Shown in pieces: positions 34,400 to 39,520 of a stretch of DNA of 64,000 nucleotides. The stretch comes from Escherichia coli. GTDB lineage: Bacteria > Pseudomonadota > Gammaproteobacteria > Enterobacterales > Enterobacteriaceae. The stretch lies in NCBI RefSeq assembly GCF_003334305.1, contig NZ_QOWS01000016.1; one strand, 5' to 3'. Position 1 is the first letter of the stretch; every line of letters begins with the position of its first letter. Made by a program: the position numbers and the translations under genes. Below the pieces are notes generated by a model. The model was given only the letters and a program-made list of their open reading frames with translations. It did not search any database and was not told where the DNA came from.

Positions 34400-35302
34400 G
34401 TGAAAATTGCCATATTGTCCCGGGATGGAACGCTCTATTCGTGTAAGCGGCTGCGTGAAGCCGCTATACAGCGCGGTCACCTGGTTGAAATTCTTGATCC
34501 GCTTTCTTGCTACATGAACATAAATCCTGCGGCGTCTTCTATTCACTACAAAGGCCGCAAGTTACCCCATTTTGACGCAGTGATCCCGCGTATTGGCACC
34601 GCCATTACCTTTTATGGGACGGCGGCACTGCGCCAGTTCGAGATGCTGGGGAGCTATCCGCTCAATGAGTCGGTCGCCATTGCCCGGGCGCGTGACAAAT
34701 TGCGTTCCATGCAACTGCTGGCGCGTCAGGGCATCGACCTGCCTGTCACGGGCATTGCGCATTCGCCGGATGATACCAGCGATTTAATCGACATGGTCGG
34801 TGGTGCGCCGCTGGTGGTCAAGCTGGTTGAAGGCACGCAGGGAATTGGCGTCGTGTTGGCGGAGACGCGTCAGGCGGCGGAAAGCGTGATTGACGCTTTC
34901 CGCGGTCTGAACGCGCATATTCTGGTGCAGGAATATATCAAAGAGGCGCAAGGGTGCGATATCCGCTGTCTGGTTGTTGGTGATGAAGTGGTCGCTGCGA
35001 TTGAACGGCGAGCGAAAGAGGGCGATTTTCGTTCCAATTTGCATCGTGGCGGCGCGGCAAGCGTCGCCAGTATCACACCACAGGAGCGTGAAATCGCGAT
35101 AAAAGCCGCGCGAACGATGGCGCTGGACGTTGCTGGTGTGGATATTCTGCGTGCTAATCGCGGGCCGTTGGTGATGGAAGTGAATGCGTCGCCAGGGCTG
35201 GAAGGAATAGAAAAAACAACCGGTATCGACATCGCGGGTAAAATGATCCGCTGGATCGAACGCCACGCTACGACGGAATATTGCCTGAAAACGGGTGGTT
35301 AG
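34400..35302 (+). CDS. rimK: Ribosomal protein S6 glutamate ligase (ATP-grasp)
   Basis: 300 aa; ATP-grasp fold; matches RimK. Confidence 0.9.
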
Positions 35303-35389
35303 TCGCAATCACATTACTGATCATGGTTTTGCCTGCGCTTTTTGCGTAAGCTGTGCCGGTCTTTTTATCGGAAGAGGTTGTACAAAATT

Positions 35390-35866
35390 ATGACATCGCT
35401 GGTCGTTCCTGGTCTGGATACGTTGCGTCAATGGCTCGATGACCTGGGGATGAGTTTTTTTGAATGTGATAACTGTCAGGCTCTGCATCTGCCCCATATG
35501 CAGAATTTCGACGGTGTCTTTGATGCCAAAATCGATCTGATCGATAACACGATCCTGTTTTCTGCCATGGCGGAAGTCCGACCTTCAGCCGTATTGCCGC
35601 TGGCGGCGGATTTATCTGCCATCAATGCTAGTTCGCTGACCGTGAAAGCATTTCTTGATATGCAGGATGATAATCTGCCAAAGCTGGTGGTTTGCCAGTC
35701 TTTATCCGTTATGCAGGGCGTAACCTATGAGCAGTTTGCATGGTTCGTGCGTCAGAGCGAAGAGCAGATTTCGATGGTCATTCTTGAAGCTAATGCCCAT
35801 CAACTGCTGTTACCGACTGACGATGAAGGGCAAAACAACGTTACCGAAAACTATTTCCTCCACTGA
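35390..35866 (+). CDS. ybjN: YbjN, putative sensory-transduction regulator-like protein
   Basis: ATG 35390 gives 158 aa starting MTSLVVPGLDTLRQW. Confidence 0.8.
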   Translation: MTSLVVPGLDTLRQWLDDLGMSFFECDNCQALHLPHMQNFDGVFDAKIDLIDNTILFSAMAEVRPSAVLPLAADLSAINASSLTVKAFLDMQDDNLPKLVVCQSLSVMQGVTYEQFAWFVRQSEEQISMVILEANAHQLLLPTDDEGQNNVTENYFLH

Positions 35867-36141
35867 TAACTCCTTTCGAGCACGCAGTCGCTGGTGCAGT
35901 GGCTGCGCGCTGCAAAATTATCTGCTGTTTTTAACCTTTTCTTAAAGATTGTTTCACTTATCTTGTGTCGATTTGGCTTTATCACATAGAGCAAATACGC
36001 ATAAAAATTTGTTAAATACCGTTTTTTAATCCGAGCTATAGTCTCAAACCCTGGCTAAAGTTATTCTTGCGATGCTTTTATATAGCGAGCAGTGCTGGCC
36101 GGGAGAGAGTTCTCTTTTCTTACACCGCGCCGATAAAAAAT

Positions 36142-36157
36142 ATGCACGTTTATTGCA
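36142..36157 (+). promoter_or_regulatory. Candidate sigma-54 promoter upstream of potF
   Basis: ATGCACG-TTTA-TTGCA matches the sigma-54 -24/-12 consensus TGGCACG-N4-TTGCA with one mismatch, about 60 bp upstream of the potF ATG. Confidence 0.45.
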
Positions 36158-36216
36158 TATCTTTCAGTGTGACAACTTTTGTTCGTTTGTTAACGAACTT
36201 TCAGAAGGAAAGAGAT

Positions 36217-37329
36217 ATGACCGCCTTAAATAAAAAATGGCTATCGGGTCTGGTTGCGGGTGCTCTGATGGCCGTCTCTGTCAGCACGCTCGCGGCTGAA
36301 CAAAAAACACTCCACATTTATAACTGGTCTGATTATATCGCCCCGGACACGGTGGCCAATTTTGAAAAAGAAACCGGTATTAAAGTCGTCTACGATGTTT
36401 TCGACTCTAACGAAGTACTGGAAGGCAAATTAATGGCGGGGAGCACCGGCTTTGACCTGGTGGTGCCGTCAGCAAGCTTTCTTGAACGCCAGCTGACAGC
36501 GGGAGTTTTCCAGCCGCTGGACAAAAGCAAATTGCCGGAGTGGAAGAATCTCGACCCGGAACTGCTGAAGTTGGTCGCCAAACACGATCCCGACAATAAA
36601 TTTGCTATGCCCTATATGTGGGCGACGACCGGGATTGGCTATAACGTCGATAAAGTCAAAGCGGTGCTGGGCGAAAACGCGCCCGTCGATAGCTGGGACT
36701 TGATCCTCAAGCCTGAAAATCTGGAAAAACTGAAAAGCTGTGGCGTCTCTTTCCTGGATGCGCCTGAAGAAGTTTTTGCTACCGTGCTGAATTATCTCGG
36801 CAAAGATCCCAACAGCACTAAAGCAGATGATTACACCGGACCGGCAACCGATCTGCTGTTAAAGCTGCGCCCGAACATTCGTTATTTCCATTCATCGCAA
36901 TACATTAACGACCTGGCAAACGGCGATATTTGCGTCGCTATCGGCTGGGCAGGCGATGTCTGGCAGGCGTCAAACCGCGCGAAGGAAGCGAAGAATGGCG
37001 TGAATGTCTCTTTCTCGATTCCGAAAGAAGGGGCGATGGCGTTCTTTGATGTCTTCGCCATGCCTGCGGATGCCAAAAACAAAGACGAAGCCTATCAGTT
37101 CCTGAATTACCTGCTGCGCCCGGATGTAGTAGCGCATATTTCCGACCATGTGTTCTATGCCAACGCCAATAAAGCAGCCACGCCGCTGGTGAGTGCGGAA
37201 GTCCGTGAGAACCCGGGTATTTATCCGCCTGCGGATGTTCGTGCGAAGCTGTTCACTCTGAAAGTGCAGGACCCGAAAATCGACCGTGTGCGCACCCGCG
37301 CGTGGACCAAAGTGAAGAGCGGAAAATAA
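36217..37329 (+). CDS. potF: Putrescine ABC transporter periplasmic binding protein
   Basis: ATG 36217 after GGAAAGAG gives 370 aa with signal peptide (MTALNKKWLSGLVAGALMAVSVSTLAA). Confidence 0.9.
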   Translation: MTALNKKWLSGLVAGALMAVSVSTLAAEQKTLHIYNWSDYIAPDTVANFEKETGIKVVYDVFDSNEVLEGKLMAGSTGFDLVVPSASFLERQLTAGVFQPLDKSKLPEWKNLDPELLKLVAKHDPDNKFAMPYMWATTGIGYNVDKVKAVLGENAPVDSWDLILKPENLEKLKSCGVSFLDAPEEVFATVLNYLGKDPNSTKADDYTGPATDLLLKLRPNIRYFHSSQYINDLANGDICVAIGWAGDVWQASNRAKEAKNGVNVSFSIPKEGAMAFFDVFAMPADAKNKDEAYQFLNYLLRPDVVAHISDHVFYANANKAATPLVSAEVRENPGIYPPADVRAKLFTLKVQDPKIDRVRTRAWTKVKSGK

Positions 37330-37423
37330 TCCGCAGCCTTAGATGCCGGGCGGGCGCACCACACCCGCCGGCAATTCGCACCATCATGGTGCGCTTGCAC
37401 ACATTCAATGCCGGAGAGCTGCC

Positions 37424-38557
37424 GTGAATGACGCTATCCCTCGCCCCCAGGCGAAAACCCGTAAGGCGCTGACGCCGCTATTAGAAATCCGCAACCTGAC
37501 CAAATCCTACGATGGCCAACATGCGGTGGATGATGTCAGCCTGACCATCTACAAAGGTGAAATCTTCGCGCTACTGGGCGCATCCGGCTGTGGCAAGTCC
37601 ACGCTGCTGCGTATGCTGGCAGGTTTTGAACAACCTTCTGCCGGACAGATAATGCTTGATGGCGTCGATTTGTCACAGGTTCCGCCTTACCTGCGCCCCA
37701 TCAATATGATGTTTCAGTCTTACGCGCTGTTTCCGCATATGACCGTGGAACAGAACATCGCTTTTGGCCTGAAACAGGACAAACTACCGAAAGCGGAAAT
37801 TGTCAGCCGGGTCAATGAGATGCTCGGCCTGGTGCATATGCAGGAGTTCGCCAAACGCAAACCGCATCAGCTTTCCGGTGGTCAGCGACAGCGTGTGGCG
37901 CTGGCCCGAAGCCTTGCCAAGCGCCCGAAACTATTACTGCTCGACGAGCCGATGGGCGCGCTGGATAAAAAGCTGCGTGACCGGATGCAGCTTGAAGTGG
38001 TGGATATTCTGGAGCGTGTCGGCGTGACCTGTGTGATGGTCACTCACGATCAGGAAGAGGCGATGACGATGGCGGGACGTATCGCCATTATGAATCGCGG
38101 GAAATTTGTCCAGATTGGCGAGCCAGAAGAGATCTACGAACATCCAACCACCCGCTACAGTGCTGAATTTATCGGTTCGGTTAATGTCTTTGAAGGTGTA
38201 CTCAAAGAGCGTCATGAGGATGGGCTTGTGCTTTATTCGCCTGGGCTGGTGCATCCACTGAAAGTCGACGCGGATGCCTCGGTGGTCGATAACGTGCCGG
38301 TACATGTGGCGCTGCGCCCGGAAAAAATCATGCTTTGCGAAGAGCCGCCCGCCAATGGTTGTAACTTCGCGGTGGGGGAGGTGATACACATTGCCTATCT
38401 CGGCGATCTTTCGGTGTATCACGTTCGTCTGAAAAGTGGGCAGATGATTAGCGCCCAGCTACAAAACGCCCATCGTCATCGTAAAGGGTTACCGACCTGG
38501 GGCGACGAAGTGCGTTTGTGCTGGGAAGTGGACAGCTGTGTGGTGCTGACGGTTTAA
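37424..38557 (+). CDS. potG: Putrescine ABC transporter ATP-binding subunit
   Basis: GTG 37424 after GGAGAG gives 377 aa starting (M)NDAIPRPQ; Walker A GASGCGKST. Confidence 0.85.
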   Translation: MNDAIPRPQAKTRKALTPLLEIRNLTKSYDGQHAVDDVSLTIYKGEIFALLGASGCGKSTLLRMLAGFEQPSAGQIMLDGVDLSQVPPYLRPINMMFQSYALFPHMTVEQNIAFGLKQDKLPKAEIVSRVNEMLGLVHMQEFAKRKPHQLSGGQRQRVALARSLAKRPKLLLLDEPMGALDKKLRDRMQLEVVDILERVGVTCVMVTHDQEEAMTMAGRIAIMNRGKFVQIGEPEEIYEHPTTRYSAEFIGSVNVFEGVLKERHEDGLVLYSPGLVHPLKVDADASVVDNVPVHVALRPEKIMLCEEPPANGCNFAVGEVIHIAYLGDLSVYHVRLKSGQMISAQLQNAHRHRKGLPTWGDEVRLCWEVDSCVVLTV

Positions 38558-38566
38558 GGAGCAAAG

Positions 38567-39520
38567 ATGAGTACACTTGAACCTGCTGCCCAGTCGAAAC
38601 CACCGGGCGGATTTAAGCTGTGGTTGTCGCAGCTGCAAATGAAGCATGGGCGCAAACTGGTCATTGCGTTGCCGTATACCTGGTTGATCTTGCTGTTTCT
38701 GCTGCCATTTCTGATTGTCTTTAAAATAAGCCTGGCAGAGATGGCGCGCGCTATTCCACCTTATACCGAACTGATGGAGTGGGCTGACGGGCAACTTTCC
38801 ATCACTCTTAATCTCGGTAATTTTCTGCAACTGACCGACGATCCGCTCTATTTTGATGCTTATCTCCAGTCGTTACAGGTAGCGGTGATTTCGACTATTT
38901 GCTGTTTACTGATCGGCTATCCGCTGGCGTGGGCGGTGGCGCACAGTAAGCCCTCGACCCGTAATATCTTATTACTACTGGTGATCCTGCCGTCGTGGAC
39001 CTCGTTTCTGATCCGCGTTTATGCCTGGATGGGAATATTAAAAAACAACGGTGTGCTGAATAATTTTCTGCTGTGGCTGGGGGTTATCGATCAACCGCTG
39101 ACCATTCTGCATACCAATCTGGCCGTTTATATCGGCATTGTTTACGCTTACGTGCCGTTTATGGTACTGCCGATTTATACCGCGTTGATTCGTATTGATT
39201 ATTCGCTGGTGGAAGCAGCGCTGGATCTCGGTGCACGACCGCTGAAAACGTTCTTTACTGTGATCGTGCCGCTGACTAAAGGTGGGATTATTGCCGGATC
39301 GATGCTGGTGTTTATCCCGGCTGTGGGCGAGTTTGTGATCCCGGAACTGCTCGGTGGCCCGGACAGCATCATGATCGGGCGCGTGCTATGGCAAGAGTTT
39401 TTCAATAACCGCGACTGGCCGGTGGCCTCGGCGGTAGCGATCATCATGTTGCTGCTGCTAATTGTGCCGATAATGTGGTTCCACAAACACCAGCAAAAAA
39501 GCGTGGGAGAACACGGATGA
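38567..39520 (+). CDS. potH: Putrescine ABC transporter permease
   Basis: 317 aa, hydrophobic ABC permease. Confidence 0.9.
   Translation: MSTLEPAAQSKPPGGFKLWLSQLQMKHGRKLVIALPYTWLILLFLLPFLIVFKISLAEMARAIPPYTELMEWADGQLSITLNLGNFLQLTDDPLYFDAYLQSLQVAVISTICCLLIGYPLAWAVAHSKPSTRNILLLLVILPSWTSFLIRVYAWMGILKNNGVLNNFLLWLGVIDQPLTILHTNLAVYIGIVYAYVPFMVLPIYTALIRIDYSLVEAALDLGARPLKTFFTVIVPLTKGGIIAGSMLVFIPAVGEFVIPELLGGPDSIMIGRVLWQEFFNNRDWPVASAVAIIMLLLLIVPIMWFHKHQQKSVGEHG

Follow-up and report, generated by a model that had tools for sequence, protein, structure and literature searches.

A conserved NtrC box between potF and potG of Escherichia coli as a candidate downstream enhancer of the σ54 promoter of potFGHI

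The putrescine-uptake operon potFGHI of Escherichia coli poses the question of where its activator binds, being an accepted NtrC target without a known NtrC site at its promoter. The DNA analyzed here (64,000 nucleotides of E. coli contig NZ_QOWS01000016.1; “the window”) contains the chromosomal ybjN-potFGHI locus, with ybjN, potF, potG, potH and potI in this order according to RefSeq annotation, and positions 35850 to 37500 match thousands of E. coli chromosomes at 95 to 100% identity. On the plus strand, potF (periplasmic putrescine-binding protein; ATG at 36217 to TAA at 37329) is separated by a 94-nt spacer (37330 to 37423) from potG (37424..38557; 377 amino acids from a GTG start). The initial annotation of this sequence correctly reported two GC-rich inverted repeats in the spacer, and suggested that both could attenuate downstream expression and set the ratio of binding protein to transporter. 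Comparison of 80 potF loci, one genome per species (81 Enterobacterales sequences counted), indicates that the second repeat is better understood as a site in the DNA, namely an NtrC box, given its sequence pattern here and published NtrC binding in vitro. We put at roughly 55% the probability that this box is an enhancer of the potF promoter acting by DNA looping, and that the hairpin formed by the first repeat and the non-ATG start of potG probably lower PotGHI output relative to PotF.

The second inverted repeat as an NtrC site

The box (CGCACCAtcaTGGTGCG, 37377..37393, no strand assigned) was compared to the NtrC consensus TGCACCA-N3-TGGTGCA, which it matches at 12 of 14 positions (CGCACCATCATGGTGCG), the mismatches being the two outermost bases. 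It is the sole match with ≤2 mismatches in the window (0.27 expected). Across the 81 loci, 24 matches at this threshold fall in potF-potG spacers against 1 in the remaining ∼480 kb, a ∼900-fold enrichment, and the box is conserved in 49 loci. Among its 39 distinct 17-mers, G2, C3, C5, C6, G15 and C16 are invariant and positions 7 to 11 vary freely. All deviations in the five core pairs are one-sided (GGTGC to AGTGC, TGTGC or GATGC), with no compensatory change; the outermost pair alternates between C...G and T...A, and no other pair does so. Other hairpins in the same spacers, unlike the box, covary freely. Within E. coli, the center of the box (C or T) and the neighboring hairpin vary, and the half-sites are constant. 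As RNA, the repeat (CGCACCAT / ATGGTGCG) does fold stably (−10.1 kcal/mol, z = −3.55; 1 of 200 shuffles as good). However, invariant halves around a free center, without compensation, mark a dyad recognized by protein and not an RNA stem. An intercistronic palindrome is not an RNA structure by default, and the one between potF and potG is a transcription-factor site.

Published binding data, whose coordinates were converted into window positions, concern the same DNA. In genomic systematic evolution of ligands by exponential enrichment (gSELEX), an NtrC peak at 95% of maximum was placed in the potF>potG spacer (Shimada et al. 2021, PMC8743547); it converts to ∼37340, about 40 bp from the box. 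Purified NtrC also shifted a spacer probe, named “the potG promoter” by the authors (PMC8743547), which maps to 37091 to 37510, and the gSELEX table of that study holds no NtrC peak for the ybjN-potF spacer.

The box is flanked by further NtrC-like half-sites. One (GCGCACCA, 37354..37361, plus strand) lies in the loop of the first hairpin, 22 to 23 bp upstream of the left half of the box; it is identical to the left arm of the box and complementary to the right arm, and a half-site at offset −22 is present in 10 of the 49 loci. On the other side, a half-site-like motif, TGCACAC (37396..37402, plus strand), lies 19 bp downstream of the left half-site, its counterpart in other genera being TTGCACC or TTGCCCC, and a forward half-site at +19 or +22 is present in 17 of the 49. 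A second full dyad 22 bp upstream of the box is confined to Kosakonia-type spacers. The box is thus a 17-bp dyad, a DNA site for NtrC by published in vitro binding, with half-sites about two helical turns away on its flanks. Some spacers are more elaborate (L014, L018, L025, L029 to L032, L037, L042 to L044, L060 and L067): in other genera two more covarying hairpins (GGACAGAGG...CCTCTGTCC and GTAYGGCAACCGGGCCRTAC) stand between the box and potG, and in Cedecea-type spacers the box sits within a longer dyad, GGGGCAG-TGCACC...GGTGCA-GCTGCCCC.

The σ54 promoter of potF

The promoter element of potFGHI recognized by sigma factor 54 (σ54, RpoN) is the −24/−12 element TATGCACGTTTATTGCA (36141..36157, plus strand). 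It contains the string ATGCACG-TTTA-TTGCA (36142 to 36157), which had been described as a σ54 match with one mismatch. Compared to TGGCACG-N4-TTGCW there are two mismatches over 12 specified bases, one of them in the near-invariant GG: the −24 part reads TGCACG, with T in place of the first G (TG for GG at −25/−24), so that the −24 element departs from the canonical GG. The −12 part, TTGCA, is correct and the G-N10-GC spacing is exact, with a predicted transcription start near 36168. The bare σ54 pattern occurs at chance level in the 64 kb (10 matches with ≤2 mismatches versus 15.1 expected). In vivo, the same 17-mer is the motif of site OS08 in σ54 chromatin immunoprecipitation sequencing (ChIP-seq), 49 nt upstream of potF (b0854) (Bonocora et al. 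2015, PMC4591121), which converts to 36149 to 36154, on the element. The site carries a “P” flag in the published table, taken here to mean that it had been predicted before.

Nitrogen depletion raised potG mRNA 6.0-fold and potI mRNA 3.2-fold, and the authors concluded that activation requires RpoN plus NtrC (Shimada et al. 2021, PMC8743547). Kroner et al. (bioRxiv 276808) included potF in a group of known σ54 targets to which Lrp binds as well. These published data on occupancy and induction show a σ54-type potF promoter that σ54 occupies in vivo, in an operon induced under nitrogen limitation via NtrC; the promoter is accepted as belonging to the NtrC-dependent σ54 regulon. The initial annotation was correct in what it observed here. 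Its main claim, a σ54 promoter of potF consistent with nitrogen-regulated putrescine uptake, was not new, σ54/NtrC control of potFGHI being established regulon knowledge, and it misread the second inverted repeat.

The element follows the consensus (A)TATGCAYR-N4-YTGCAT(A), 74 to 124 nt upstream of potF, in 52 of the 81 sequences. It is present in every sampled genus of Enterobacteriaceae except Yokenella, where the promoter spacer is one base short, and is also missing in Salmonella diarizonae, where the −12 TTGCA has become AGGCA. Yersiniaceae, Pectobacteriaceae and relatives do not have the element. All loci with the element carry the nonconsensus T at −25, and the element is itself a dyad, ATATGCA-N7-TGCATAT (36141 to 36161). 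This constancy, combined with the dyad form, suggests that a weak −24 element may be under selection, or that a second dimeric protein may share the site.

A candidate enhancer downstream of its promoter

In E. coli, 1236 bp separate the −24 element from the NtrC box downstream of it, and across the 49 loci this distance is nearly constant at 1208 to 1390 bp. The two occur together in 49 of the 81 loci, with the promoter alone in 3, the box alone in none and neither in 29 (Fisher P = 6 × 10−19, a value that overstates independence, as the split is mostly that of one clade versus its outgroups). Loss is coupled as well: Yokenella and Salmonella diarizonae, which are without the strict promoter pattern, are also without the box. 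A search for NtrC boxes with ≤3 mismatches within 500 bp upstream of potF returned one weak match in the 81 loci and otherwise none. Conversely, no −24/−12 element with correct spacing was found within several hundred base pairs of the box on either strand, and σ54 ChIP-seq placed no site within potF or potG (Bonocora et al., PMC4591121). Since the box is the only NtrC site nearby, the potF promoter is the only σ54 site, and the two are gained and lost jointly, the box is most likely an enhancer of the potF promoter. NtrC bound at the box would lie inside the transcription unit and would activate the promoter, some 1.24 kb upstream, through a DNA loop. Action over such a distance has precedent, as Reitzer and Magasanik reportedly found in 1986 that glnAp2 is still activated by NtrC sites moved >1 kb away from it in either direction. 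More tentatively, and from sequence comparison, the box may be a natural enhancer, conserved family-wide, that lies ∼1.2 kb downstream of its own σ54 promoter and inside its own transcription unit. Our search of the literature for natural downstream NtrC enhancers gave nothing useful.

The closest comparison for the promoter is glnAp2 of glnALG, which likewise has a σ54 −24/−12 promoter, is served by phosphorylated NtrC on 17-bp TGCACCA-N3-TGGTGCA dyads and is induced by nitrogen limitation. At glnAp2, two strong NtrC sites lie about 110 to 140 bp upstream; potF differs in its single full dyad with half-sites ∼1.24 kb downstream in the transcribed operon, and in having TG for GG at −24. The operons and genes glnHPQ, hisJQMP, argT, gltIJKL and ddpX share with potFGHI membership of the NtrC/σ54 regulon, a role in nitrogen scavenging, the promoter class and σ54 ChIP-seq sites. 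They have NtrC ChIP-seq peaks at their promoters, whereas potFGHI has none and its sole recognizable NtrC site is downstream of potF. For the layout of the box, the nearest analogue is the NtrC site in the glnA-glnL spacer (glnLp), which is also an NtrC box in the first intercistronic spacer, behind an upstream σ54/NtrC promoter and with a hairpin after the first gene. The glnLp box overlaps and represses a promoter of sigma factor 70 (σ70). In vivo, the glnA-glnL spacer is an NtrC ChIP-seq peak (PMC4066584 Table 1). By comparison, no credible σ70 promoter lies over the potF-potG box, and no in vivo occupancy of it has been reported.

If the box is such an enhancer, every transcribing polymerase would traverse it, so activation could be self-limiting and output biased to potF. 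An enhancer inside the operon would also account for the lack of stable ChIP-seq occupancy. It would be a rare natural bacterial enhancer >1 kb downstream of its promoter, within the operon that it controls, and would settle the oddity in the literature with which we began. What interest remains in the locus lies in this downstream, intra-operon place of the sole NtrC site.

The hairpin after potF and the start of potG

The first inverted repeat (hairpin 1; 37345..37372, plus strand) starts 15 nt past the potF stop codon. It is GC-rich and pairs the arms GCCGGGCGGG (37345 to 37354) and CCCGCCGGC (37364 to 37372) over 9 bp, with one bulged G and the loop CGCACCACA. Its folding energy is −19.2 kcal/mol (z = −2.28; 7 of 200 shuffles as good). 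Each of the two repeats folds stably; the fold of the whole spacer is unremarkable (z = −1.41). A hairpin is found at this position in nearly all 81 loci, with stem sequences differing between loci (for example, GCCGGGCA.../...TGCCCGGC, TCCGGTGGCG/CGCCACCGGA or ATCACC/GGTGAT), and in the outgroups Yersinia, Pectobacterium and Dickeya potF is followed by a canonical hairpin and a T-run (e.g., GGAACAGG...CCTGTTCCTGTTTTTTATTG). Hairpin 1 is an RNA-type hairpin directly after the potF stop, its structure conserved across genera. A structural role at the RNA level is plausible, and hairpin 1 could stabilize or partly terminate a potF-only transcript. It resembles the malE-malF repetitive extragenic palindrome (REP) and the hisJ-hisQ stabilizers, GC-rich hairpins that come directly after a periplasmic binding-protein gene in operons for ABC transporters, where more binding protein is needed than membrane components. 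Hairpin 1 differs from the malE-malF REP in being single copy. Identity with REP or with bacterial interspersed mosaic elements was rejected, since the median E. coli genome had one match to a 41-nt hairpin query.

The GTG start of potG, called in the initial annotation and given by RefSeq, is preceded by the Shine-Dalgarno sequence GGAGAG (37413..37418, plus strand), with a gap of 5 nt to the GTG at 37424. GGAGA(G) stands ahead of potG in essentially all 81 loci. The start codon of potG is GTG in 65 of 81 and TTG in the other 16, never ATG, whereas potF, as extracted, begins with ATG in 78 of the 81 sequences. Another ATG, at 37343 and in frame, would extend potG by 27 codons to 404 amino acids, but was rejected: it lies in the hairpin 1 stem and has no Shine-Dalgarno sequence, and it is almost certainly no start since the spacer is conserved in neither length nor sequence. 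A long-range helix (37333 to 37340 with 37414 to 37422) that would hide the potG Shine-Dalgarno sequence appears in the minimum free energy fold, but two of its base pairs are lost in the common K-12 allele, and it was likewise discarded. The spacer thus holds a hairpin, an NtrC dyad and a strong Shine-Dalgarno sequence with a conserved weak (GTG/TTG) potG start.

Together these features suggest how PotF could be kept in excess. Hairpin 1 would act by shielding or ending an RNA that carries potF alone, and the weak start by making ribosomes initiate less often at potG; PotGHI output would thereby fall relative to that of PotF. The non-ATG start, the near-universal hairpin, the fall in induction from potG to potI and one study in which potHI is depicted as not NtrC regulated (PMC9853098) all fit lower output of PotGHI than of PotF. 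The idea that the spacer sets the stoichiometry of binding protein and transporter therefore survives in part: the conserved non-ATG start of potG fits it, but no terminator is predicted in the spacer and none of these points demonstrates attenuation. As an attenuator, hairpin 1 only is plausible.

Spacers in this collection also vary by insertion. Several Enterobacter and Klebsiella loci (L016, L019, L022 and L035) carry extra REP-like hairpins, Buttiauxella sp. A111 (L064) has an element like the enterobacterial repetitive intergenic consensus in place of the box region, and E. coli strain 7CC (L085) has ∼120 nt inserted after the potF stop and ahead of hairpin 1, with hairpin and box intact.

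Alternative explanations

Several observations weigh against a looping enhancer coupled to a stoichiometry-setting hairpin. The box fails the classical position of an upstream activating sequence (about 100 to 150 bp upstream of the σ54 promoter served), and it offers one full dyad with half-sites versus two or more adjacent full sites; natural NtrC enhancers normally lie 100 to 150 bp upstream of the promoter and have at least two full sites. NtrC at high concentration can activate from solution, so a site may not be needed. Three species (L020, L038 and L064) have kept the σ54 element and have no box in the spacer. No peak at potF or potG is given for nitrogen-starved E. coli in two NtrC ChIP-seq studies (PMC4066584 Table 1; PMC5217608 supplement). 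As for the hairpin, no intrinsic terminator is predicted on the plus strand of the spacer, where hairpin 1 is followed by AAUUCGCACC with no U-tract, and the common K-12 allele (G37350A, C37351G) weakens its inner stem. Transcript 3′ ends in the spacer, which attenuation there would imply, have no potF or potG entries in the part of the supplements covered from an E. coli Term-seq study (Adams 2021).

It is possible, although unlikely, that both inverted repeats work purely as RNA hairpins of the potFGHI mRNA; by holding back read-through, or by shielding a transcript of potF alone, they would fix how much binding protein is made per transporter. In addition to the stability of each repeat, the pair folds at −29.3 kcal/mol (z = −2.65), and a hairpin after potF in nearly every locus, the hairpin plus T-run of the outgroups, the absence of ATG starts in potG and the drop in induction from 6.0-fold at potG to 3.2-fold at potI would all be expected. 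Neither stem, however, is followed by a U-tract, the helix that would hide the Shine-Dalgarno sequence does not survive the K-12 allele, and the Term-seq supplements are silent in the part noted above. The second repeat also weighs against this reading, being conserved in sequence with uncompensated deviations, fitting the NtrC consensus and lying in a spacer bound by NtrC in vitro. Somewhat less probable again is a true NtrC site that does not activate potF and serves instead as a roadblock or repressor of read-through into potGHI or of a weak σ70 promoter, or as an affinity sink without output. The resemblance to the glnA-glnL spacer, itself an NtrC ChIP-seq peak (PMC4066584), the negative in vivo ChIP-seq at potF and potG, and the description of potHI as not NtrC regulated (PMC9853098) would agree with such a role, as would a weak σ70-like match, TGGACC-16-AATAAT, that ends at 37330. 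That match, however, scores 9 of 12 and lies in coding sequence; five such matches occur in the region versus 1.6 expected, and a σ70 scan of the region found weak σ70-like matches only, all within coding sequence. A glnLp-like σ70 promoter over the box was rejected because its candidate −10, CATCAT, falls in the nonconserved center of the dyad. Strong conservation of the box throughout the family and its joint occurrence with the σ54 element point to a function connected with that promoter, and potG is induced, not repressed, under nitrogen limitation.

Least probable of all, and very unlikely in our view, is the interpretation of Shimada et al. 2021, in which the box serves a separate internal σ54 promoter for potGHI (“the potG promoter”). 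Their gSELEX table assigns the peak to potGHI, and RpoN holoenzyme shifted the 420-bp potG probe in vitro (PMC8743547). Against this, the box is only 30 nt from the potG GTG in E. coli, neither strand has a correctly spaced −24/−12 element in the spacer or close by, and TGGTGCG...TTGCA has σ54 spacing in Citrobacter only. For want of a correctly spaced element, and of a σ54 ChIP-seq site in potF or potG (Bonocora et al.), a σ54 promoter inside the operon was rejected both for potG and in antisense orientation. The name “potG promoter” used in print has probably been misassigned.

Additional features of the locus

Upstream of the potF promoter, the top RpoN gSELEX peak of Shimada et al. converts to ∼35842; the σ54 site seen by ChIP-seq lies about 300 bp further downstream. 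The motif assigned to the peak (TTTGCATGGTTCGTG...) lies inside ybjN at 35735 to 35751, and on the minus strand reads ACGCACGAACCATGCA, a single-G σ54-like variant; this ybjN-internal motif may be a second RpoN site in vitro. An AT-rich block of about 120 bp (35955 to 36080; ...TGCATAAAAAATTGATAAAAGGCGTTTTTTAATCTGGGCTATAGCCTC..CCTGGCTAAAGTTATTCTTGCG), 90 to 200 bp upstream of the σ54 element, is strongly conserved, and in most genera contains on its minus strand a core like that of integration host factor sites, TATCAA-N4-TTA. The potF promoter region was constitutively bound by Lrp in published Lrp ChIP. An Rfam covariance-model scan of 35000 to 39000 gave no relevant match; the one sub-threshold exception, COG2908 RNA inside potG (38396 to 38449; 18.7 bits versus a gathering score of 58.7, E = 0.22), is most likely chance.

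The 5′ untranslated region (5′UTR) of potF contains a further hairpin, GTTCGTT-TGTT-AACGAAC followed by TTT (36181..36198, plus strand), about 15 nt ahead of the potF Shine-Dalgarno sequence (−7.5 kcal/mol, z = −3.78). Pairing holds in 87.8% of cells across 26 genera, with one pair changing from U-A to C-G in 10 sequences. This 5′UTR hairpin may be a leader attenuator or a stability element, and Cedecea, Buttiauxella and Mangrovibacter have a different GC-rich hairpin followed by TTTAC at the same position. In most Yersinia, Rahnella, Pectobacterium and relatives (L045 to L059, L061, L063, L066, L068 to L072 and L078), a palindrome, TTGTATC-N5-7-GATACAA, stands about 30 to 60 nt upstream of potF instead of the σ54 element, which suggests that potF may be under a different regulator in these families.

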